A stretch of 20,745 nucleotides of DNA from Gammaproteobacteria bacterium. Its GTDB lineage: Bacteria; Pseudomonadota; Gammaproteobacteria; Thiohalomonadales; Thiohalomonadaceae. This document shows positions 3,043-20,345 of this stretch, piece after piece. Positions within the stretch are counted from its first letter, which is position 1. Each line of letters starts with the position of its first letter. The notes below the pieces were generated by a model. It made no database searches and had not been told where the DNA came from. It was given only the letters and a program-made list of their open reading frames with translations. The stretch spans positions 1 through 20,745 of the forward strand of contig JALOAT010000060.1 in the NCBI GenBank assembly GCA_023228645.1, read 5' to 3'. The position numbers were made by a program, and so were the translations under genes.

Positions 3043-3242
3043 TGAAACTTTCTGAAACACAGCTTGATCAAATGATCACACTCTGGCACGATGATAAATC
3101 AATTCTTTGTGAACTCCACGAATTTTTGGGTTTGTCTAAAGAAGATTATTCTAAATGGGTTAAAACTCCTAGTTTTCAACCTGAAAGTGATTTGGATGAA
3201 GATGAAGTTAATTTCATTCTGAGTATGAAAGGAAGATGTTAA
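3039..3242 (+). CDS. hypothetical protein (67 aa)
   Basis: Its start overlaps the upstream stop (ATGA). ORF from the track. Confidence 0.5.
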   Translation: MMKLSETQLDQMITLWHDDKSILCELHEFLGLSKEDYSKWVKTPSFQPESDLDEDEVNFILSMKGRC

Positions 3243-4468
3243 TGTCGGTTCACATTTTTGGCGGTGGAACCTTTTTTCACGTTCGCAACCATATGGCGCT
3301 TTGCGCACCAGCATTTGGTAAAACTGCTCGATATATTAATACCTTTTATGACGATGCATTCTTGCATTTGACAAAAATGGCTGATCCAAATTCAATTCTT
3401 GATACCAATGAAGATGTTGAATATAAGCTTGATAAGCTCATTGAGGATCCTTATTGCAAGATCATCTATTTCAATGTTGCACTTTGTGATTATGAGGGAT
3501 CTATCTTGGATGGCACTCTTGAAGATTGTATAACTCCATCAGGAAAATACGCTCCTCGACTTAAAACTCGAGAAGGTCTACAGCATATGCGCCTCACGCC
3601 GGCAGCTAAGTTGATTGGCAAGATTCGCAAGACTCGCAAGGATATTTTTGTTGTTGGATTTAAGACGACCTGCAACGCAACACCTGATGAGCAATATCTT
3701 GCAGCATTGAATATGTTGAAAGAAAATTCTATCAACTTGGTTCTCGCGAACGATACAGGTAATCGTCGAAATATGATTGTTGCTCCAGAAGAAACTCGCT
3801 ATTGCGTTACTACTGATCGAAATAAAGCACTTACAACTTTGGTAGAAATGACCAATAGCAGGTCTCGAAACACTTTTACCCGATCGACGGTAATTGATGG
3901 CGATCTTGTTCCTTGGAATTCAAATGAAATTCCTGACAATTTGCGACAGGTGGTCAATCACTGCATCAAAAGAGGAGCATACAAGCCCTTCCGGGGATCA
4001 ACTGCTGGTCACTTTGCAGTCAAGGTGAATGAACACGAAGTTTTGACATCTGTTCGCAAGACAAATTATAATGATTTGGATAAAAGCGGATTGGTTCGAA
4101 TTGAATACGACGGTCTCGATAAAGTCATTGCGCACGGCGCGAAGCCAAGTGTTGGAGGTCAGAGTCAGAGAATTGTGTTTGACGAGCATCCAGATTTGGA
4201 CTGTATTGTACATTTCCATTGTCCTACTAAGGAAAATGTTCGTGATTCGCTATCACACGTGGATCAGGCGCCATCAGAATGCGGGTCACACCAATGCGGG
4301 TCAAGAACATCAAAAGGATTAAAGTCTTTTGGGAATCTGGAAGCAGTGATGCTTGATAATCACGGGCCAAATATTGTCTTTTCTAAGGATACCCCAGCTC
4401 AAGAAGTTATTGATTTTATTGAAGCAAACTTTGATCTTGAAGCTAAGACTGGTGGCTTGGTAAGTTAA
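3236..4468 (+). CDS. two-domain enzyme: N-terminal CoaB/DFP-like (phosphopantothenate-cysteine ligase-like) domain fused to a C-terminal class II aldolase/adducin-like (FucA/MtnB-like) domain
   Basis: N-terminal IFGGGTFFHVRNHMALCAPAFGKTARYI is reminiscent of the CoaB motif [24 protein letters not shown]. Further on, DIFVVGFKTTCNATPDEQYLAALNMLKENSINLVLANDTGN is reminiscent of CoaB ...YVVGFAAETNNV...KNLDLICANDVSQ. C-terminal GSTAGHFAVKV...AHGAKPSVGG...HPDLDCIVHFHCP...LDNHGPNIV parallels the class II aldolase motifs GTAGNVSVR / KLPSSEW / AVVHNHAVH / LLQHHG. The His metal ligands are retained, but the conserved Glu is VGG here. The alternative start ATG at 3242 has better SD spacing. Confidence 0.6.
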   Translation: MLMSVHIFGGGTFFHVRNHMALCAPAFGKTARYINTFYDDAFLHLTKMADPNSILDTNEDVEYKLDKLIEDPYCKIIYFNVALCDYEGSILDGTLEDCITPSGKYAPRLKTREGLQHMRLTPAAKLIGKIRKTRKDIFVVGFKTTCNATPDEQYLAALNMLKENSINLVLANDTGNRRNMIVAPEETRYCVTTDRNKALTTLVEMTNSRSRNTFTRSTVIDGDLVPWNSNEIPDNLRQVVNHCIKRGAYKPFRGSTAGHFAVKVNEHEVLTSVRKTNYNDLDKSGLVRIEYDGLDKVIAHGAKPSVGGQSQRIVFDEHPDLDCIVHFHCPTKENVRDSLSHVDQAPSECGSHQCGSRTSKGLKSFGNLEAVMLDNHGPNIVFSKDTPAQEVIDFIEANFDLEAKTGGLVS

Positions 4469-4479
4469 TTCTTACCAAG
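4456..4479. terminator. 9-bp perfect hairpin (CTTGGTAAG-TTAATT-CTTACCAAG) spanning the convergent stop codons of 3236..4468(+) and 4465..5310(-)
   Basis: Inverted repeat seen directly. There is no clean T-run on either side, so its role as a bidirectional terminator is tentative. Confidence 0.35.
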
Positions 4480-5310
4480 CAACTCTTTCCAAGTAATTTG
4501 AATTCCGCGTTTTTTGTAAGCCTCGACTGGATTTGAATAAACTCCGGTTGGGGTTTCATTATTTCTAAAATATGTCAACCATTCTCTTGATGTTTTTGAA
4601 TTTGTTGATTTGAAATATTCTTTAAATTCATCCAATGGCATAATATTTTCCATATAACGTTGTGATAATGCTTCTTGTGCTTTAATTTGGGCCTCCGTTT
4701 TTGGCAATCCTTTTCTTTTTAAAGACCATCGCTTTTTAGTTTCTTCGGAATGTTTATAGCCTTTACGCTTTTCGGCAATTTCTTTATATTGCTCGTCAGA
4801 CAACAATTTTCGTCCCTTTAATGAATTGCTAATTTTTTTCTTTGTTTCTTCGGATATGGTGCGCCCTTTTTGATGTTGTGGGGCCGCCATCTGTGCTTCA
4901 GTTTTTGGTTTACCTTTTCGCTGTTGGCTTAATAATTGCTTGGTAGATTCTGAATGAATCATTCCAGCAGTGCTTTCGCCACCATTCGTTAAGTTACTCA
5001 ATGGCCCTAAATTTAAATTATATCTTCCAATAACTTTAATGAAATGTATTTCCCACAATTGTGCTTCTTGTTTGGAAAGATTTTCTTTTAATTTAATAAT
5101 TATCGGTTTCTGGCCTAAATCTAATATATGTTTAATTTTTCCATTTTTTATAGGATTACAATTAGAATTCAAGCTGTCAGTTTTTAAATGAGCTTGATAT
5201 CGTTTACCTTTGCCCATTCCAATATAAAATGGCTCAAAATCAAAATTTTCTCCATTATAAGAAAAATTTCCTGGCTTTCTTGGATCTAAATATGCGTAAA
5301 CATAAAACAT
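4465..5310 (-). CDS. GIY-YIG homing endonuclease with NUMOD3-type repeats (free-standing, opposite strand to its neighbours)
   Basis: N-terminus MFYVYAYLDPRKPG...PFYIGMGKGKRY carries the GIY...YIG motifs. Central repeats (SEETKKKISNSLKGRK; SEETKKRWSLKRKG) are NUMOD3-like. C-terminal tail NPVEAYKKRGIQITWKEL is shared with the second endonuclease. Confidence 0.8.
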   Translation of the reverse strand: MFYVYAYLDPRKPGNFSYNGENFDFEPFYIGMGKGKRYQAHLKTDSLNSNCNPIKNGKIKHILDLGQKPIIIKLKENLSKQEAQLWEIHFIKVIGRYNLNLGPLSNLTNGGESTAGMIHSESTKQLLSQQRKGKPKTEAQMAAPQHQKGRTISEETKKKISNSLKGRKLLSDEQYKEIAEKRKGYKHSEETKKRWSLKRKGLPKTEAQIKAQEALSQRYMENIMPLDEFKEYFKSTNSKTSREWLTYFRNNETPTGVYSNPVEAYKKRGIQITWKELLGKN

Positions 5311-5373: not shown

Positions 5374-5613
5374 ATGTCAGATACTGAAAGTTATTATTCT
5401 ACCCATAATGCTGTTTGGAGCGAATCGAAGGGTGAATGGATTGAATATGAAAATTCAAATCCACCATTTCGAACCAAATTTCCAATGTGGCTTATTGTAG
5501 GAGCATATGAGATTTGGATTCTTCCAATTCTTCGCTTCCCTGCCAAGATTGAAGCTGCTATTACTCGAAAGCTTGATCGTATGGATGAAAACCATCAGAA
5601 TCGAGCCAGGTAA
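5374..5613 (+). CDS. hypothetical protein (79 aa)
   Basis: ATG at 5374 is preceded by SD TGGAGA. The track start at 5344 would overlap the -10 element. Confidence 0.5.
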   Translation: MSDTESYYSTHNAVWSESKGEWIEYENSNPPFRTKFPMWLIVGAYEIWILPILRFPAKIEAAITRKLDRMDENHQNRAR

Positions 5614-5879
5614 TGGTTACGTATCGAATTAAACGCCGCTCGTGCGGTGATTATGAAATTCACCGCAAGGTAGGCTTCTTTTTCTGGAAGCACGATGGTG
5701 GCGACCGCAGGCTAAAATCCGAAGACCGTTCGAGAGGGTTTCGATATTGGTACGACACATATGAACAGGCTAAGAGAGGCCTTGCTGCTCGAGAAGATTT
5801 TGACAAGCTTTCGGCAGCCGAAGGTGGTACTTTGGGTGAAAAGATTTTCTATAAACCTTTCCCTGAAAAGGAAGATTGA
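5613..5879 (+). CDS. hypothetical protein (88 aa)
   Basis: Its start overlaps the upstream stop (TAATG). Confidence 0.5.
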   Translation: MVTYRIKRRSCGDYEIHRKVGFFFWKHDGGDRRLKSEDRSRGFRYWYDTYEQAKRGLAAREDFDKLSAAEGGTLGEKIFYKPFPEKED

Positions 5880-6313: not shown

Positions 6314-6378
6314 GCAGTCTTAGTTTAAGATAAAATATTGATTAATCAATGATCTAGGTTCAAATCCTGGCGACTGTA
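6314..6378 (+). other. tRNA-like degenerate element: acceptor-like stem, D-arm-like and T-arm present, but the anticodon arm is replaced by the palindrome ATTGATTAATCAAT
   Basis: 5' GCAGTCT-TA-GTTT-AAGATA-AAAT, then the palindrome (6337-6350), then CTAGG-TTCAAAT-CCTGG-CGACTGT-A. The acceptor pairs 6/7. There is no 7-nt anticodon loop. Confidence 0.3.
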
Positions 6379-6681: not shown

Positions 6682-8061
6682 ATGTTTAGCACTATGACTT
6701 TGGCCATTGGTGGCATTGTCCTAGCAGCATTTGTAGGTATTCTATTTTTTGCTGCTTTGATTTTCCGCCGCGTGGTCCCAACAAATATGGTACATATCGT
6801 TCAGTCGTCTAAAAAGACTGTTTCATATGGCCGTGGACGTACTGAAGGTAATACGTATTACGAAATTCCTTCTTCGATTCCTTTTTTCGGTGTTACTGTT
6901 ACTCAGTTCCCAGAATCAGTTTTCGATATTAACTTGAAAGATTATGATGCTTACGACGTTGATCGTTTGCCATTCCTAGTCGACGTTCGTGCGTTCTTCC
7001 GCATTAGCGATTCACAGATTGCCGCCCAGCGCGTTTCGAACTTTAATGAGCTTCGTGACCAGCTTTCAGGTGTCCTCCAGGGCGCTATCCGTAACGTTCT
7101 TGCACAATATACACTTGATCACATTATGAGCGACCGCGCAACTCTTGGTAAACAGTTCTCTGATGTTGTTGATGGTGGCTTGACTGAATGGGGTGTTTCA
7201 ACCGTCAAGACGATTGAATTTATGGACATTCGTGATGCTCGCGATTCACAGGTTATCCACAATATTATGGCTAAGAAAAAGTCATTTATTGAAATGGAAA
7301 GCCGTATTGAAGTTGCTAACAACAAACAGGCTGCTGAATCAAAAGAAATCGAAGCTCAGCGTCAGATTGCCCTTTCAAAGGCAGAAGCTGAACAGACTGT
7401 TGGTATTCGCGAAGCTGAGCGTGACAAGACTGTTGGTATTGCTAACGAAAAGTCAAACCAGGAAGTTCAGGCTGAAGCAAAGGTGACTACTGAACGCCAG
7501 ATGGAAGTTCGCAAGGTTGCCGAAGTTAAGCAAGCTGAAATCAACCGCGATGTTGCTGCCGTTAAGGCAGAACAGGACCAAAAGGTTCAGGTCATTGCTG
7601 CTGAGGCTGATAAAGAATCACAGATTCAAATCGCCGAAGGTAAGTTGGAAGCTACTAAGAAAGAAGCACAAGGTGTTGAAGCTCTTGGTAACGCTAAGGC
7701 CGAGGCTGAAAAGGCACTGTTGCTTGCACCAGTTAACGCCCAGTTGACTCTTGCTAAGGAAATTGGTGAGAATGAAGGTTACCAGAAATATCTCATCGAG
7801 ATCCGTAAGGTTGAAGCTGGTGAAAATGTCGGTAAGGAAATGGCTGGTGCGATGTCACAAGCTGACCTTAAGATCATTGCCAACAGTGGTGATGTACAGG
7901 GCGGCATTGGAAAATTGGCTGATGTGTTTACCCCAGCCGGTGGAACCAGCCTTGCTGGTATGTTGAGCGCATTTGCTCAAACTCCTGAAGGCGCCGCAGT
8001 AGTTGAGGGTATCACAGCAAAGCTTAATGCCCCTGCTGAAACCGGTAAGAAAGCTAAGTAA
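6682..8061 (+). CDS. flotillin-like SPFH (band 7) domain membrane protein (459 aa)
   Basis: N-terminal TM helix (LAIGGIVLAAFVGILFFAALIF). An SPFH-like region. A long A/E/K/Q-rich coiled coil, typical of the FloT/YqiK family. SD AAAGGAAAATGAATG. Confidence 0.8.
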   Translation: MFSTMTLAIGGIVLAAFVGILFFAALIFRRVVPTNMVHIVQSSKKTVSYGRGRTEGNTYYEIPSSIPFFGVTVTQFPESVFDINLKDYDAYDVDRLPFLVDVRAFFRISDSQIAAQRVSNFNELRDQLSGVLQGAIRNVLAQYTLDHIMSDRATLGKQFSDVVDGGLTEWGVSTVKTIEFMDIRDARDSQVIHNIMAKKKSFIEMESRIEVANNKQAAESKEIEAQRQIALSKAEAEQTVGIREAERDKTVGIANEKSNQEVQAEAKVTTERQMEVRKVAEVKQAEINRDVAAVKAEQDQKVQVIAAEADKESQIQIAEGKLEATKKEAQGVEALGNAKAEAEKALLLAPVNAQLTLAKEIGENEGYQKYLIEIRKVEAGENVGKEMAGAMSQADLKIIANSGDVQGGIGKLADVFTPAGGTSLAGMLSAFAQTPEGAAVVEGITAKLNAPAETGKKAK

Positions 8062-9155: not shown

Positions 9156-9504
9156 CTACGCAGGTATTCGTTCAGTCAAAGCTGGAGAAAAAATCATACC
9201 TATAGTTTGGGTGAAGGATATTGATATTTCGACCATAGAAGAAGGTCATATTACTATATCTACATATGAGGGAGAAATACATAAATCATATGGATTTGAT
9301 GCTATTGAAACCGTTATGGTTTTTAAGCCGAGTGCTCTTGAAGGTCGACGCCTAAAGTGGAAAAAGAATGCTTGGCGTTTTCATAACTTCATAATTCACC
9401 CACTTTTAGAAATCCTTTCAACATTAGGTTTCAAACGCCAAGCGGTGAGATTACACGATTGGGGTACTCCAACGCCTCGTGGATTTAAAGATACTTCTTC
9501 TTAA
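9124..9504 (+). CDS. hypothetical protein (126 aa)
   Basis: ORF from the track. Its 3' end overlaps the convergent endonuclease gene by 20 nt. Confidence 0.45.
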   Translation: MLPTRPKMMINYAGIRSVKAGEKIIPIVWVKDIDISTIEEGHITISTYEGEIHKSYGFDAIETVMVFKPSALEGRRLKWKKNAWRFHNFIIHPLLEILSTLGFKRQAVRLHDWGTPTPRGFKDTSS

Positions 9505-10369
9505 TTTCCATCCAAGATGTTTTAATTCCTCTTCTTGAATATGCCACTATCGGATTTCGTGGTATGTTGTTAGGAAGTGGATTGTTATTAATATATTCTT
9601 GCCATTTTGAATAACTATTGACATTGATAGATTTTAGAAAAAATAGAAAATCTTCGAAACTGATATAGTTTTCTCTTAATTTCTCTTTAGTCTCATCTGA
9701 AAGTTTTTTACCAAGATTGGCCTTTCGTAGTTTTTCTTTAACGCTGTCAGGTCTTGTTCTACCTGTCAATGCTACTCTTATCTTTTCAATAGACTCAGCT
9801 GATGGCTTGGCTCGATTTATTGCTGATCGTCTAAGTATTTCTTTGGTTTTTTCAGAAGCTTTAGATCCTTTTTTAGCCTTACTTATTTTGGCTTTAGCTT
9901 CATCAGTATGACCTTTGCCCAATCGCGCAGCTTGTATGGATAAAACTTGCTTTTCGCGATAAACTGGATCATTCCACTTGGAAGTTTGTATTTCACTTTT
10001 AGTTTTGGCAACATTATTTTTAGCGTAGTTCTTCTTATAAGTAGTTTTTTGTTTTTCGATACTACGTTCATCATTATAGAAATTAGTTCTACCGATTTGC
10101 TTATTAAGCCACTGGTTTGAACTGTGACAATGAAAACACTCTTGAAATTTAATTTCTAAATTTATGATCTGATCAACACCGCCAGCAGCTAAGATTTCAA
10201 TCACATCTGGCTCGCCATTAAATGCTCGGAATTCTTTCACATAATGACTTGATGTGAAATATGTTTTCCATAAATTTGATGGATGAGCACTTTTTCCATA
10301 TTGGCATCCAACATACCATTTGTCTATTTTAGACCATCCAATTATGTAAAGATAAGGCAAATTTTCCAT
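9485..10369 (-). CDS. second free-standing homing endonuclease (GIY-YIG-like N-terminus, NUMOD3-type repeats, C-terminal tail shared with the 4465..5310 endonuclease)
   Basis: N-terminus LYIIGW...KWYVGCQ. Repeats (SEIQTSKWNDPVYREK; DEAKAKISKAKKGSK; AESIEKIRVALTGRTR; DSVKEKLRKANLGKK; DETKEKLREN). C-terminal NPIVAYSRRGIKTSWMEI matches NPVEAYKKRGIQITWKEL of the first endonuclease. Confidence 0.7.
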   Translation of the reverse strand: MENLPYLYIIGWSKIDKWYVGCQYGKSAHPSNLWKTYFTSSHYVKEFRAFNGEPDVIEILAAGGVDQIINLEIKFQECFHCHSSNQWLNKQIGRTNFYNDERSIEKQKTTYKKNYAKNNVAKTKSEIQTSKWNDPVYREKQVLSIQAARLGKGHTDEAKAKISKAKKGSKASEKTKEILRRSAINRAKPSAESIEKIRVALTGRTRPDSVKEKLRKANLGKKLSDETKEKLRENYISFEDFLFFLKSINVNSYSKWQEYINNNPLPNNIPRNPIVAYSRRGIKTSWMEIKKKYL

Positions 10370-11814: not shown

Positions 11815-11914
11815 AGGTCTTTAGTGTAATGGAAGCACTTTATTAGCAGGCACTTAATTTATTAGGACCTGGTAAGCGGAAATAAGAGTCACGGTTCGAT
11901 CCCGTGAAGACCTG
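11815..11914 (+). tRNA. tRNA-like gene with canonical acceptor, D- and T-arms but a 36-nt anticodon region (about 29 nt excess); anticodon not assignable, so either an intron-like insertion or a disrupted tRNA
   Basis: Acceptor AGGTCTT/AAGACCT, 7/7. T8 A9. D-arm GTGT-AATGGAA-GCAC. Anticodon stem TTATT (11840-44) paired with AATAA (11881-85), enclosing AGCAGGCACTTAATTTATTAGGACCTGGTAAGCGGA. Variable GAGT. T-arm CACGG-TTCGATC-CCGTG. Discriminator G. A direct repeat TTTATTAG occurs twice inside. Confidence 0.45.
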
Positions 11915-11949
11915 CAAAACCTAGTAGCGTAGGAATGAGATACTTCGAT

Positions 11950-11994
11950 AGGAAAACCTTCGTGTCGCTGGTTCGATTCCAGCTCTCCCCACCA
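11950..11994 (+). pseudogene. 3' half of a tRNA-Phe(GAA)-like gene with genomically encoded CCA
   Basis: Reads loop AGGAAAA, stem CCTTC, variable GTGTC, T-arm GCTGG-TTCGATT-CCAGC, acceptor TCTCCCC, discriminator A, then CCA. It is near-identical in layout to an enterobacterial tRNA-Phe 3' half as I recall it (GTGTC variable loop, TTCGATT T-loop, A73). Confidence 0.5.
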
Positions 11995-12002
11995 GCTTTT
12001 AT

Positions 12003-12045
12003 GGGGAGATAGCTCAGACGGTAGAGCAGAGGAAAGAAAAACTTG
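12003..12045 (+). pseudogene. 5' half of the same tRNA-Phe-like gene, lying 8 nt DOWNSTREAM of its 3' half (permuted or tandem-decayed arrangement)
   Basis: GGGGAGA-TA-GCTC-AGACGGTA-GAGC-A-GAGGA-AAGAAAA-ACTTG. The 5' acceptor is the exact complement of the upstream TCTCCCC. The anticodon-stem 5' strand GAGGA pairs 4/5 with the upstream CCTTC. The loop holds GAA at 34-36 but A33 in place of U33. Confidence 0.5.
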
Positions 12046-12087
12046 TTTCGCTTTTATCTCTAGGTTTCTTTTTTAGGATGTGGGAAG

Positions 12088-16266: not shown

Positions 16267-17262
16267 ATGCGCTCGAATGAAATTAAAAAACTAAAAGAAC
16301 AAATTGCTTTTTTGACTAAAAAGATTGAAGAGGATTTGATTCTCAAATCAGTAAAGCCGGGCGAGATTGTTTTAACTGATCCCACTAACGATGAAGTGCC
16401 TGTTTTACAAAAGGCTGATAATGAAGAGCGTATTAAAATTTTGGCCAGAATTGAAGATGACATTAAAGATGATGAAGATTTGAACGAAAAGAGCGGCTAT
16501 TCAGCTAAATCAGCTCATTCAGGCAAAGACCTCGGTAAGCCAGGTAAAAATTTCAAGAAAATTGCCGATAAAGCCGCCAAGGAATATGGCTCAAAAGAAG
16601 CTGGAAAGCGCGTCGCAGGTGTAGTCTTGGCCAAACTTAGAAAAGAATCAGTAGATCCTTCAAAGGCACTTATGCTTGAAGGTATGGAAATGGCCTTAAC
16701 TGGCGAGCTTGACGAAAAACTTAAACCATCAATGGGCGTTGGTGCTTACATTGACGACTTTGTCCATTCAAAGAATAAACGATTTGCTGGTAAATCAAAA
16801 GCTCAGCGTATCAAAATGGCTAAAGGTGCTTATTACGGTGCTACTAAAGAATCAGTAAATGAAGCAGGTGATGAGTGGTATCAAAAAGGATATCAGCATT
16901 ATAAAAATGGCGGTGAACCGAGAAGTCCAGCGTTTTTTGGTAAAATGGATTCGTATCATTCATTTAAAAAAGGTTTTGAAGCTGCTAAGAATGAAAAACC
17001 AGTTAATGAAGCTGCCGAAGATAGTGAACATTTTGTTATCACTCCAGAATTAATGCTCCGTTCAATGGAATGGGCAAAAGAAGATGCTGGAGAAGATATT
17101 CAACTTCACAAATATATTGAAGCGTTGTCAGAAATGATGGCTACCAAGGATGTTTTGGATAGTGATGATTATGAAGCTATTGTTTCAAAAGTTACACCAA
17201 ACGATCCTAATGTCAACGACAATGGACCGGAATCTCCACCAGAACAAGAAAGCACATATTAA
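16267..17262 (+). CDS. hypothetical protein (332 aa) with an N-terminal coiled coil and Lys/Gly-rich repeats
   Basis: SD GAGGG 7 nt upstream of the ATG at 16267. The track start at 16231 would overlap the upstream small ORF. Confidence 0.55.
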   Translation: MRSNEIKKLKEQIAFLTKKIEEDLILKSVKPGEIVLTDPTNDEVPVLQKADNEERIKILARIEDDIKDDEDLNEKSGYSAKSAHSGKDLGKPGKNFKKIADKAAKEYGSKEAGKRVAGVVLAKLRKESVDPSKALMLEGMEMALTGELDEKLKPSMGVGAYIDDFVHSKNKRFAGKSKAQRIKMAKGAYYGATKESVNEAGDEWYQKGYQHYKNGGEPRSPAFFGKMDSYHSFKKGFEAAKNEKPVNEAAEDSEHFVITPELMLRSMEWAKEDAGEDIQLHKYIEALSEMMATKDVLDSDDYEAIVSKVTPNDPNVNDNGPESPPEQESTY

Positions 17263-17534
17263 TGGATTACAGACAAGCATTAATGTACCATTTGGTACGA
17301 TATGAAATGATGGTGTCGTTAGTTGGTGGTTTACCACTAACGACATATACTAAGCAAGAATTGCAAGAATTTATTAAATTAACAATGGATAATATTGAAA
17401 ATTACCCATTAGAGAAGCTTAACCGTTGGTTTGGTTTTATCCAAGGAATTATTATAGCGTGTGGTTTTACAACAGTTCAAGCCGAACGTGATGCTACACG
17501 ACCACATTTTAAACATTTAGATTTTCCCGCTTGA
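17262..17534 (+). CDS. hypothetical protein (90 aa)
   Basis: Its start overlaps the upstream stop (TAATG). Confidence 0.5.
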   Translation: MDYRQALMYHLVRYEMMVSLVGGLPLTTYTKQELQEFIKLTMDNIENYPLEKLNRWFGFIQGIIIACGFTTVQAERDATRPHFKHLDFPA

Positions 17535-17574
17535 ATTTATCTTTTCTTTATGTTATATTGATTTAAATCAATAT
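17531..17574 (+). promoter_or_regulatory. putative promoter TTGAAT-17-TATATT overlapped by a 20-bp perfect palindrome ATATTGATTTAAATCAATAT (operator-like)
   Basis: TTGAAT at 17531-36, TATATT at 17554-59, and the palindrome at 17555-17574, immediately upstream of the SD and ATG of the HisRS-like gene. Confidence 0.45.
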
Positions 17575-17587
17575 TGAAAGGAAGAAA

Positions 17588-18343
17588 ATGATCCCGGTGT
17601 ATAATGTGAATGGCTTACCATTCTGGTCTCAAGAAGACATCAAACTTAGAAATTATCTGAAGGATCATTTTGCATCCAAAGTATTTGGAATTCTTGAACA
17701 GGAGAATCCAGCTTGGAAGATGCTTGAAATTGAAGCACCACTTCTAACACCAGTAAGTTTAATCAATCCAAACTACACAAATGAAGATGTGTGGATGCAA
17801 GAACGTATGGATAATGAGATTAACCATTTAGTTCTTCGTCCAGAAACGACTCCTGGTTCATATGCCTATGCTAAGCATCTTTTAGAATCGCATTCAATTT
17901 ACAAGCCACCATTTATTGTCTGGCAGGCAGGTAAAAGCTTCCGTCGCGAGCAGGACCAAGTTAGTAAGAATATGCGTTTGAAGGAATTCTATCAACAAGA
18001 ATTCCAGTGCATCTACACTGCTGACACTATGAATGATTATCACACTGCTGTTCTTGATCCAATCAAGGATATGTTGGCAGATGCCTGCAATCTAAGTGCT
18101 CGAGTGATTGCCAGTGACCGTCTTCCTTCATATAGTGAGATTACGATGGATGTTGAGGTATTCAACGGTGACAAATATATGGAAGTTTGCTCCATCAGCC
18201 GCCGCACTGATTTCCCAACTAAAGCAAGATTCCAAACCAAGAAAGGTTTGGTAGAGAAAGATTTGATGGTTCTTGAAATTGCTATTGGTTTGGACCGCGT
18301 GATCTATAATAGGAATCATATTGACAGATCACGCCCATTTTAA
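17588..18343 (+). CDS. truncated class II aminoacyl-tRNA synthetase-like catalytic core (HisRS/HisZ-like), lacking an anticodon-binding domain (251 aa)
   Basis: LVLRPETTPGSYAYAKH matches HisRS LTLRPEGTAGCVRAGIEH. FIVWQAGKSFRREQDQVSKNMRLKEFYQQEFQCIY matches motif 2 ([27 protein letters not shown]). C-terminal ...CSISRRTDF...AIGLDRVIY resembles motif 3 (GGGRYD...AMGLERLVL). All compared against HisRS from memory. Confidence 0.6.
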   Translation: MIPVYNVNGLPFWSQEDIKLRNYLKDHFASKVFGILEQENPAWKMLEIEAPLLTPVSLINPNYTNEDVWMQERMDNEINHLVLRPETTPGSYAYAKHLLESHSIYKPPFIVWQAGKSFRREQDQVSKNMRLKEFYQQEFQCIYTADTMNDYHTAVLDPIKDMLADACNLSARVIASDRLPSYSEITMDVEVFNGDKYMEVCSISRRTDFPTKARFQTKKGLVEKDLMVLEIAIGLDRVIYNRNHIDRSRPF

Positions 18344-18356
18344 TTAGAGTGGATAA

Positions 18357-20345
18357 ATGACGAAACTTAATAAAGAACAACAAGAAGCAGTAGATCACAA
18401 AGATGGGCCTTGTATTGTTTTGGCCGGGCCCGGCGCCGGCAAGACGGCAGTATTGACTCGTCGCACCGCAAAACTGGTAGATTCAGGCGTAGCACCTGAA
18501 CGAGTATTGTTATTAACGTTTACTCGTTTGGCTGCTAAGGAGATGCTTGATCGGGCAAAAGCCATCAACCCATTGTGCGAAAAAGTTGACGGCGGCACGT
18601 TTCACAGTCTTGCTACCCGCATAGTCAATCAAAATAATCATTTGTTTGGTAAAACCAAGCCATTTACTATTCTTGATGTTGAGGATAACCAGACAATAGT
18701 CAAACAGTTGACTAATGAAGTCAGAAATGGATCCACAGATGAGGATTGGCCATCGCCATCAATGATTCAGCGAATTATTAGTTTTTCAACTAACACTCGA
18801 ATGACTATTGCTGAATCTATTTTTTCAGTATCTCCTAATTATGTTCATCTCACCCAAAAACTTGAAACTATACGTGACAAATATTTTGATTATAAAATTG
18901 AACGTGGATTATTGGACTATGATGATTGTTTGGAATATTTTTCTGCACTCTTGAGTAATGAAGATATCGCTCCAGCAATTAGGGCCAAATGGGACTATGT
19001 CTTAGTTGATGAATATCAGGATACTAACCAACTCCAACTTGAGATCGTATATGGGCTGGTACACAAATCTAAAGCCAATATTATGGTTGTGGGTGATCCA
19101 GCCCAAAGTATATATTCTTTTCGTGGATCTGCCCCAGAAACTATGACGGGCTTTAGAAATCGTTTCCCTAAATCTAAAATAATCAATCTTGATACCAACT
19201 ATCGATCCACACCAGAGATTGTTGATGTGGTAAATTCAATTGATAAGCGACTTGGTATTGGTTTTAATAGAACATTACATTCATTTCAAAAGAGTAGTGA
19301 TGACTTACCTAACTTTGTTGAATGTGGAAATGTTAATTCGCAGGCTGTCACATTGGCTGATAATATACTTGAAAGCAAAAATTCAGGTAAATGTATGTTA
19401 TCTCAAAACGCTGTAATTGTTAGAGCTATGGCGTATGCTCGCCCTATTGAGATTGAATTTACAAAACGTAAAATACCTTATAAAATTGTCGGTGGATTGC
19501 GTATTGACGAGGCTGCCCACGTTAAGGATCTGCTCTCATTGGCCCGAATCGCAACGAATCCACAGCACGAACCCGCTTGGCTTCGAATATTGACGAGATT
19601 TAAAAAGCTTGGTGCAAAAACAGCAAATGAAATATCCAGTCTGATGGCTAATGCTGTTGGAATCCAGGATGTTGTTGATCAGCTTGAAAATTACCCTTCT
19701 AAGAAATTTGATTTTAAACCCGTGATCAATTCTCTAAAGGAGTTTGATAAAAGTGATCTAACTCCTGCTGAAAAACTAGAACTTTGTGTCCAATATATGG
19801 AACCAATTTGGTCTACCATAAAAGAATGGAAAGATGATTGGAAGGACCGTAAAAAGGATCTTGAATCTATAATATCAATAGCTAATGATCATTCTACTGT
19901 AGAATCGTTTCTATCAACTATTACTCTTGATTATTCCGTTGACAACAAAAAGATTCACGAAAAAGAACCAAGATATGAAGATGATATGATTACTATTACT
20001 ACTGTTCACGGTTCTAAGGGCCTTGAATGGCCAAGGGTTCATATTCCATCTTTTATATCTGGTCACATACCTTCAACTTATACTCTTGACACAAAAGAAG
20101 AAATGCGTATATTGTATGTCGCAGTGAGTAGAGCAAAGAAAGAATTGTTTATCTACAAACCGCTGTTCAATCCGCAAGGATCATTTTCACAAGAATCTGA
20201 ATTTGAACCGATGATTAAGCCACATTGTAATGTGGTTAGAGTTAAAAAGGGATCTCCTTTAGGGAGTGACAGAATAAATTCATCAACTAAAATTGATATG
20301 AAGGCAGTGCTGGCCGCGAAGATGAAAAAACGCCAAACTGCTTGA
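18357..20345 (+). CDS. UvrD/Rep/PcrA-like superfamily 1 DNA helicase (662 aa)
   Basis: Motif I GPGAGKT, Ia [43 protein letters not shown]. The C-terminal domain carries the [10 protein letters not shown] motif and a ...VAVSRAK... motif. Confidence 0.85.

Follow-up and report, generated by a model that had tools for sequence, protein, structure and literature searches.

The window, the whole stretch of 20,745 nucleotides of contig JALOAT010000060.1 (assembly GCA_023228645.1) that was analysed, carries near its end a gene for a protein of 251 amino acids. The sequence and modelled structure of this protein indicate a catalytic core whose origin lies in a glycyl-tRNA synthetase (GlyRS) of the bacterial alpha2 type, with GlyRS as its nearest relative. 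The protein and its homologues, referred to here as mini-GlyRS, appear to keep a complete glycine-activation site while every tRNA-reading appendage has been shed, and the family is found almost only in giant bacteriophages. Conservation of the catalytic residues makes it very likely that mini-GlyRS is an active adenylate-forming enzyme, and the amino acid that it activates is probably glycine. The role proposed for it is the charging of tRNA independently of the anticodon, and the full chain of steps that ends in this role is given a probability of about 45%.

A GlyRS-type catalytic core and its adenylate site

The three motifs of class II aminoacyl-tRNA synthetases (aaRS), which an earlier note made from the DNA letters had read in this protein, are all recognizable in its sequence. 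The Pfam family PF00587, the class II core of the G/H/P/S/T synthetases, covers residues 77-239 with an E-value of 3.7e-11 and a score of 43.8 bits, above the gathering score of 29.3 bits. The gene and its motifs are located as follows:

17588..18343, + strand: gene for the stand-alone, GlyRS-type class IIa catalytic core (predicted); open reading frame (ORF), ATG to TAA, 251 amino acids
17717..17752, + strand: motif 1 region, residues 44-55 KMLEIEAPLLTP; dimer-interface strand with conserved P51 and P55
17834..17854, + strand: LRPETTP loop, residues 83-89, from HMMER alignments to GlyRS chains
17912..18007, + strand: motif 2 and its loop, residues 109-140; R119, E121, F134, Q136, E138 and Q140
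18122..18211, + strand: lid motif LPSYS and strand MEVCSISRRTD; Y182, E199, R206 and D208
18263..18307, + strand: motif 3, residues 226-240 MVLEIAIGLDRVIYN, from the alignment with Nanoarchaeum equitans (N. equitans) GlyRS; E230, A232 and R237

Motif 1 reads ...EIEAPLLTP with P51, L53 and P55 invariant (alignment A1), motif 2 reads WQAGKSFRRE...MRLKEFYQQE, and motif 3, given as LEIAIGLDRVIY, contains LEIAIGLDR. The protein is 100% identical to NCBI entry MCK9532515.1, which is labelled 'hypothetical protein' and comes from a 465,559-bp contig binned as a gammaproteobacterial metagenome-assembled genome (MAG). Only 11 residues remain C-terminal of motif 3, therefore the protein has no C-terminal anticodon-binding domain, and Pfam gave no match to PF03129, the HGTP anticodon-binding domain. 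Motif 1 and the RPETT loop are separated by ~25 residues, a segment so short that the insertion domain is also missing. The description of a free-standing core without either domain is thus upheld, and no separate anticodon-binding domain was found among the neighbouring genes that were checked.

An AlphaFold2 model built with 23 homologues has the class II aaRS fold, with a predicted local distance difference test score (pLDDT) of 85.9 and a predicted template modelling score (pTM) of 0.86. A helix at residues 15-39 is followed by the motif 1 strand at 44-47, and residues 124-129 of the motif 2 loop are the sole part of the model with a pLDDT below 50. This loop, located between FRRE and RLKEF, has 8 residues and equals that of GlyRS in length; it hardly varies among the closer members, and Q124, K127, and M129 are invariant positions of alignment A1. 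The protein is probably dimeric.

Comparisons with PDB sequences place the protein nearest to GlyRS. The single window protein matched dimeric GlyRS with an E-value of 3.5e-10, pyrrolysyl-tRNA synthetase (PylRS) with ~3e-3, and HisRS with 0.05. The family profile matched mycobacterial, Nanoarchaeum, Thermus, and human GlyRS (6.7e-13 to 5e-4), followed by one ProRS (1.4e-3) and one PylRS, and HisRS was not among the matches of this profile. The motif 3 segment alone matched nothing in the PDB sequences. NCBIfam assigned the window protein to glycine--tRNA ligase at 1.2e-15, to hisS at 6.4e-8, and to hisZ at 0.12, and among 53 diverse family members the GlyRS models were matched by 53, hisS by 44, and hisZ by 10; the C-terminal PylS model was weakly matched by 7 of the 53 (best 2.2e-9). 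The window protein scores far below the NCBIfam equivalog cut-offs (57.3 vs 312 bits for NF003211, 33.2 vs 243.3 bits for TIGR00389), and the family has no dedicated Pfam or NCBIfam model. No PHROG family was found for the window protein, and a megablast search against phage genomes was also empty.

Structure searches gave the same order of relatives. The top Foldseek matches in the PDB are all alpha2 GlyRS (8t5n, 2.5e-13; 1ati, TMq 0.70), and they are followed by ProRS, PheRS-alpha, and SerRS. Profile searches, the AlphaFold2 model, and Foldseek all returned a class II aaRS fold, as the earlier note had expected. The fold by itself is generic for class II, and the signatures that mark the protein as GlyRS lie in its sequence. 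The note had called the protein a mini HisRS/HisZ-like core; the class II core stands, and the likeness to HisRS was imprecise, since the matches in both sequence and structure are to GlyRS.

The alpha2 GlyRS enzymes of Mycobacterium tuberculosis (M. tuberculosis; 8T5N/8U2P), Thermus thermophilus (1ATI/1B76), N. equitans (5Z5E), and human (2PME) are the best match in sequence and in structure. They have in common with mini-GlyRS the RPET loop, a motif 2 loop of equal length, the tyrosine of an xHYx-type lid, and motif 3. Unlike alpha2 GlyRS, mini-GlyRS is without the HGTP domain, the zinc-bearing insertion domain, and the beta-hairpin linker, and it measures 210-350 amino acids vs ~460-690.

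The structures of M. tuberculosis GlyRS (MtbGlyRS) with glycyl-AMS, published in 2025, name the contacts made to the ligand (PMC12208437). Residues were mapped from HMMER alignments, in which the 8t5n chain numbering equals the native numbering + 13, and the match of the pocket residues rests on sequence alignment rather than on 3D coordinates. The contacts described for MtbGlyRS (PMC12208437) and the residues of the window protein aligned to them are:

Glycine amino group: held by Glu165, Glu216 and Glu324; aligned with E86, E138 and E230
Specificity residue: Ala326, which excludes side chains; aligned with A232
Carbonyl and sulfamoyl/phosphate: bound by Arg197 and Gln214; aligned with R119 and Q136
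Adenine N6: contacted by Glu199; aligned with E121
Adenine sandwich: Phe212 and Arg331; aligned with F134 and R237
Ribose and metal: bound by Glu284; aligned with E199
Near the active-site metal ions: Arg291; aligned with R206
Lid tyrosine: Tyr264 of the [AS]HY[AS] lid, which closes over the glycyl moiety; aligned with Y182

Conservation was followed in an alignment of the 53 diverse members, which share 30-63% identity with the window protein. Twenty columns are invariant, namely E86, T87, T88, P108, Q113, S117, R119, E121, F134, Q136, E138, Q140, Y182, D188, E199, R206, D208, E230, D236, and R237. Every contact listed above falls in these columns except A232, which is conserved in at least 90% of the members. 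The ATP- and amino-acid-binding residues, whose loss the earlier note had considered, are accordingly intact by alignment. The spacing from Glu to Arg in motif 3 is 7 residues in both MtbGlyRS (Glu324-Arg331) and the window protein. A full glycyl-adenylate site, with the Glu triad and counterparts of Gln214 and Ala326, therefore seems to be common to alpha2 GlyRS and mini-GlyRS. Gln214 and Ala326 are the bacterial alpha2 variants, and human GlyRS has Met and Ser in their place; the Gln and Ala at these positions of the window protein point to a bacterial alpha2 ancestor.

The sole systematic change in the site concerns Glu218. In GlyRS this residue is buried and must be protonated to hydrogen-bond Glu324, whereas in mini-GlyRS the position is an invariant Gln (Q140) throughout the family, which would be a conservative way to fix the protonated state of Glu218. 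The EGxA strand of alpha2 GlyRS is also changed, to CSIS.

The state of the adenylate site bears on two other explanations. The earlier note had offered a regulatory subunit as its alternative; this would be a pseudo-enzyme, and a related form of the explanation is a decaying non-catalytic fragment of a captured GlyRS gene. HisZ families are without the catalytic residues; HisZ has lost catalysis and pairs with HisG, whereas mini-GlyRS keeps the catalytic residues and neither hisG nor another regulated partner was found in the neighbourhoods examined. Because the whole adenylate site is strictly conserved, a HisZ-type regulator is unlikely, and with the 20 invariant columns corresponding to GlyRS catalytic residues and hundreds of independent clusters of uniform length, either form of this explanation is scarcely credible. 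The second explanation is that, in the absence of a tRNA acceptor, the enzyme in its Gly-AMP or ATP-bound state condenses a second ATP to Ap4A or other dinucleoside polyphosphates as a nucleotide signal that alters host physiology. The synthesis of Ap4A has been reported for GlyRS and LysRS and is known for human GlyRS, and the intact ATP site and the absence of acceptor-binding domains would suit such an activity. However, the glycine pocket, including A232, is conserved as strictly as the ATP site although direct ATP condensation would not need it, and the gene context has no link to nucleotide signalling, which makes this role highly improbable.

A short family of giant bacteriophages

A word-indexed search returned 2020 homologues, of which the best 120 are all ~240-330 amino acids long and are found on contigs of up to 572 kb. 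An exhaustive profile search of 1.84 billion cluster representatives (clusters at 50% identity) yielded 709 clusters with E<=1e-3, of which 113 reach E<=1e-30. None of the best 150 cluster representatives exceeds 352 amino acids, which is too short to include an anticodon-binding domain. Family members thus span roughly 210-350 amino acids, and mini-GlyRS is a distinct short family and not a set of truncated gene calls. Some of the longer members carry an insert of 60-90 amino acids precisely at the GlyRS insertion-1 site, and the insert of P0121 aligns with residues 180-240 of human GlyRS. The insert, which resembles a remnant of the alpha2 GlyRS insertion, fits a reductive evolution from full GlyRS. 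Domain fusions were considered as a clue to function and set aside; the longer members show internal inserts or short tails only, and in one of them the tail is rich in Lys/Arg.

Every cultured phage found to carry a homologue is a jumbo phage. These phages include Sinorhizobium phage Phosso (469 kb), Xanthomonas phage XbC2 (368 kb), five Brevundimonas vB_BpoS phages, and the Caulobacter phages CcrBL9, CcrSC, and the Bertelyvirus group. In IMG/VR, 45 loci were found, mostly on contigs of 150-560 kb. Cellular genomes gave 5 matches in 185,579 prokaryotic species (one genome each), and these lie on contigs of MAGs or, in an isolate assembly, on a contig of 396 kb. The proposal that the window gene is phage-encoded agrees with these results and with the identical protein on the 465,559-bp contig. 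Since mini-GlyRS is maintained across hundreds of jumbo-phage lineages, it presumably does something that these phages need. Annotation of the family is a practical point, as its labels are inconsistent: the cultured-phage homologues are annotated from 'hypothetical' through to 'serine-tRNA synthetase', and across the family the labels hypothetical, seryl-tRNA synthetase, glycyl-tRNA synthetase, and class II RNA synthetase are all in use.

Both free-standing class II cores and mini-synthetases encoded by viruses are already known. A description of a phage mini-GlyRS was not found in the open-access literature, although such an absence is no proof that it is undescribed, and a 2022 review of aaRS paralogues lists no GlyRS-derived stand-alone paralogue (PMC9437257). 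Within the literature searched, a GlyRS-derived, phage-specific family of 210-260 amino acids with a complete glycine site is undescribed. At this size mini-GlyRS would rank among the smallest natural class II synthetase-type enzymes. Other tiny (185-222 amino acids), uncharacterised proteins resembling class II cores were seen in unrelated large phages by searches of BFVD and by tblastn against phages, for example K7QJG2 of Escherichia coli phage phAPEC8, a protein of a Staphylococcus Kayvirus, and others on contigs of gut phages. Phages may therefore carry stand-alone class II cores more widely than the mini-GlyRS family alone would suggest.

Proposed role and the nature of the acceptor

In the proposed mechanism mini-GlyRS would bind ATP and glycine and form glycyl-AMP as GlyRS does. 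The glycyl group would then be transferred to the 3' end of a tRNA that is recognized via its acceptor end only, with the anticodon unread, and the likeliest substrates would be the tRNA-Gly of the host or of the phage. The protein would assist translation as an auxiliary factor and provide a supply of Gly-tRNA independent of the host enzyme; its expression probably depends on a sigma70 promoter of the host type. The class II motif 2 loop touches the acceptor end of tRNA. The known hosts (Caulobacter, Brevundimonas, Sinorhizobium, and Xanthomonas) use the unrelated alpha2beta2 GlyQS, and for this reason the phage enzyme would be an independent source of Gly-tRNA.

The closest functional precedent is the Tupanvirus mini-AlaRS, which binds and charges tRNA via the acceptor stem alone (PMC10036535). 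It is likewise a virus-encoded aaRS reduced to an aminoacylation module. Unlike mini-GlyRS, it belongs to the AlaRS family (class IIc/d), comes from a eukaryotic giant virus, retains a tRNA-recognition domain beside the catalytic domain, and has an experimentally shown activity, whereas mini-GlyRS is known from its sequence.

Translation genes are found around many members of the family. A tRNA gene lies within 1 kb of mini-GlyRS in 22 of 56 loci and within 6 kb in 29 of 56, and seven copies stand inside tRNA arrays (loci L013, L023, L029, L030, L034, L035, and L044). A full-length CysRS gene is nearby in 12 loci, in two distinct gene orders, and genes for an Rnl1 RNA ligase, Pth2, and a polynucleotide kinase (PNK)/phosphatase also recur. 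In a large clade that includes Phosso, the upstream order is Rnl1 RNA ligase, R2K ATP-grasp, CysRS, tRNA(CUA), and 0-2 small ORFs, and mini-GlyRS is followed downstream by Pth2, PNK/phosphatase, and HNH. Host GNAT toxins acetylate Gly-tRNA, and a connection between these toxins and the pairing of Pth2 with a GlyRS activity would be speculative. Of the tRNA-Gly genes in related loci, 13 of 17 begin with GCG or GCA, and U73 is present in almost all, which is the classical bacterial acceptor identity set for Gly, and most phage tRNA-Gly near mini-GlyRS in other phages have G1-C72/C2-G71/G3-C70/U73. The association with tRNA genes is suggestive, not decisive.

Several points weigh against anticodon-independent charging of tRNA. 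In about half of the loci, no tRNA gene lies within 6 kb of mini-GlyRS; these include the loci of the Caulobacter and Brevundimonas phages and the window itself. No isotype-specific tRNA neighbour was found, as the nearest tRNA changes with the clade (CUA, Ala, Ser, Glu, Tyr, Cys, Gly, Arg, or Val). The loci are phylogenetically related, which makes the association softer than the counts. Normal GlyRS depends strongly on C35 and C36, which are read by the anticodon-binding domain, and the other natural stand-alone class II cores act mostly on acceptors other than tRNA. The family members are acidic, with isoelectric points of 4.8-6.0. Finally, Phe83 of the A76 pocket comes from the GlyRS insertion domain, which occupies the acceptor-arm site (PMC12208437); with this domain missing, the canonical docking of the tRNA 3' end would be incomplete.

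The acidic character and the missing hold on A76 would also suit a ligase that transfers glycine or a small amino acid to a non-tRNA acceptor, such as a protein, a carrier-protein thiol, or a small molecule. This reading is the main rival to the charging of tRNA, although it is the less likely of the two. Appendages that bind RNA are absent from the protein, and the gene for a protein-modifying ligase of the R2K/RimK ATP-grasp type recurs nearby in two gene orders (the Phosso clade and XbC2), which would fit a theme of protein modification. However, no carrier-protein (PP-binding) gene, HisG gene, or other constant partner gene was found adjacent to mini-GlyRS in the clades and neighbourhoods examined, and tRNA and translation genes, not biosynthetic genes, dominate the neighbourhood. 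A conserved small upstream partner, either a carrier protein or a tRNA-binding subunit, was considered and rejected, because the upstream small ORFs are non-homologous between clades; they gave no informative Pfam or PHROG matches.

Known paralogues of the same general kind have other origins. HisZ, the amino acid:carrier-protein ligases (Bll0957/Atu2573), EpmA/GenX, and AsnA derive from HisRS, SerRS, LysRS, and AsnRS, not from GlyRS. The amino acid:carrier-protein ligases are SerRS-derived with an active-site zinc and have an adjacent carrier-protein gene, whereas mini-GlyRS has the GlyRS pocket unchanged and no such gene beside the loci examined. EpmA is a class IIb enzyme that lysylates elongation factor P (EF-P), and mini-GlyRS belongs to class IIa. 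If the acceptor is not tRNA, mini-GlyRS would define a new GlyRS-derived ligase.

A further explanation is an anticodon-blind synthetase for an unusual phage RNA, either the tRNA(CUA) of the Phosso-like clade or the anticodon-less and permuted tRNA-like RNAs of the window. As an orthogonal pair resembling PylRS/tRNA(Pyl), it could read UAG as glycine or make glycine-tagged RNAs or proteins independently of the host code. The earlier note had pointed to tRNA-like RNAs without a usable anticodon in this region, and three aberrant elements were indeed found, including Rfam matches:

6314-6378, + strand: tRNA-like element; Rfam tRNA 40.5 bits, above gathering; normal acceptor, D and T arms
11815-11914, + strand: tRNA-like element; Rfam tRNA 39.4 bits; G discriminator; CCA not encoded
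11949-12056, + strand: circularly permuted tRNA-like module; YrlA model 37.6 bits, below the gathering score of 69

In the first element the anticodon stem closes on a loop of ~1 nt that has no anticodon, and Aragorn does not call it. In the second a 38-nt insert replaces the anticodon loop; it lies in an intergenic gap that is kept in the relative of 92% protein identity (L050, 2613-3030). The third element is laid out as T arm, 3' acceptor strand with an encoded ACCA, loop, 5' acceptor strand, and D arm, and it weakly matches the permuted and beta transfer-messenger RNA (tmRNA) models; a phage RNA resembling Y RNA or two-piece tmRNA is a possible identity. None of the three has the Gly set G1-C72/C2-G71/G3-C70/U73. 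A two-piece tmRNA of the permuted alphaproteobacterial type was seen in another locus (L010, 11724-12054, + strand; 115.9 bits), 5 kb downstream of a mini-GlyRS/CysRS pair.

The tRNA(CUA) genes, 11 in 10 loci that include Sinorhizobium phage Phosso, lie 62-1887 bp upstream of mini-GlyRS and stand between the CysRS gene and mini-GlyRS:

L001: tRNA(CUA) at 5594-5669
L014, L015, L018, L021, L022, L024, L025 and L026: tRNA(CUA)
L055: two tandem tRNA(CUA), 7523-7598 and 7604-7679

The Phosso copy is labelled 'tRNA-OTHER' in GenBank. The acceptor stems of these tRNAs diverge strongly, and the D arm, the CUCUAAA anticodon loop, and G73 (10 of 11) are kept. Together with the weak PylS C-terminal matches, the three aberrant window elements, and a protein that has no anticodon reader, these genes form the case for a dedicated unusual RNA. 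Stop-codon usage was examined in the same context: among window ORFs of at least 60 amino acids on the + strand, none of 45 ends in TAG (24 TGA, 21 TAA), and the close relatives L050-L052 have 2 such endings among 68 ORFs of at least 80 amino acids.

The wider pattern makes this explanation improbable. The tRNA(CUA) loci all come from a single syntenic clade, and their adjacency to mini-GlyRS may thus be an inherited gene order. Most members have no nearby tRNA(CUA), including the window and the cultured Caulobacter, Brevundimonas, and Xanthomonas phages examined. The variable acceptor stems and G73 are unlike the GCG...U73 of tRNA-Gly, and with U35 these tRNAs look like ordinary Gln-type amber suppressors by the identity rules of GlnRS. 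The window tRNA-like RNAs are 5.5-11 kb away from the mini-GlyRS gene. In-frame TAG was not seen in the main genes of the locus slices examined, and TAG is rare in most loci, which could be avoidance of TAG stops or plain codon bias; TAG recoding was set aside, as the stop-codon counts yield a weak hint only. PylRS and delta-N PylRS belong to a different subclass and have a deep hydrophobic pocket in place of the GlyRS glutamate pit of mini-GlyRS, and unlike in the tRNA(Pyl) pairing, the phage tRNA(CUA) is an ordinary cloverleaf.

If charging through the acceptor end only is the true role of mini-GlyRS, it would be a natural test of the 'operational RNA code' and a compact scaffold for orthogonal translation systems. 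Large phages would then bring a GlyRS type that is foreign to their proteobacterial hosts, perhaps to evade host control of the glycyl-tRNA supply or host attack on it.

Promoter, palindrome and flanking genes in the window

The features immediately around the mini-GlyRS gene are:

17262..17534, + strand: ORF of 90 amino acids, phrog_7775, function unassigned; a neighbour in the window's own clade only (L050-L054)
17531..17559, + strand: predicted sigma70-like promoter from a consensus scan, TTGAAT, 17-nt spacer and TG-extended TATATT
17555..17574, no strand: ATATTGATTTAAATCAATAT, a perfect palindrome of 20 bp that shares bases with the -10 element and with the first part of the 5' untranslated region
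18357..20345, + strand: UvrD/Rep-type superfamily 1 helicase gene, 13 nt downstream of mini-GlyRS; Pfam 4.5e-64

The -35 hexamer of the promoter overlaps the stop codon of the upstream gene, and relatives with protein identities of 92% and 74% share the pattern TTGAnn, 17 nt, TGnTAnnnT, which suggests that mini-GlyRS is transcribed by the host RNA polymerase. A purine-rich Shine-Dalgarno sequence, AAAGGAAG, is located at 17577-17584, shortly 5' of the ORF.

The palindrome had been described in the earlier note as operator-like. The perfect 20-mer is present, is unique in the window, and occurred in 0 of 100 shuffles. As a conserved operator it was rejected, because it is specific to this genome and is absent or degraded even in the relatives of 92% and 74% identity: a 12-bp core is left in L051 and L052, and nothing in L050, L053, and L054. 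In a read-through transcript, pairing between a pyrimidine run, UCUUUUCUUU (17540-17549), and the Shine-Dalgarno region could enclose a palindrome hairpin. The RNA fold at 17540-17588 has a minimum free energy of -11.6 kcal/mol, which does not differ significantly from that of shuffled sequences (z=-1.65), and L053 and L054 have not kept the fold.

The order 90-aa ORF, mini-GlyRS, UvrD, ClpP, and later Pth2 is kept at 92% and 74% identity (L050-L054). The placement of the gene beside a UvrD helicase is accurate for the window, but the adjacency is confined to relatives of at least 74% identity and is missing in Phosso, XbC2, the Brevundimonas and Caulobacter phages, and the IMG/VR loci, therefore a functional link to UvrD was rejected as a property of the family.

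Two genes resembling homing endonucleases, at 4465-5310 (- strand; GIY-YIG and NUMOD3) and 9485-10369 (- strand; NUMOD3), lie on the strand opposite to their neighbours and are probably mobile insertions. Other genes of the window encode a 233-aa protein with a C-terminal PEP-CTERM sorting motif (1514-2215, + strand) and a 459-aa SPFH/Band-7 protein (6682-8061, + strand), both in a phage genome, and a 410-aa protein with a class II aldolase/adducin domain (3236-4468).

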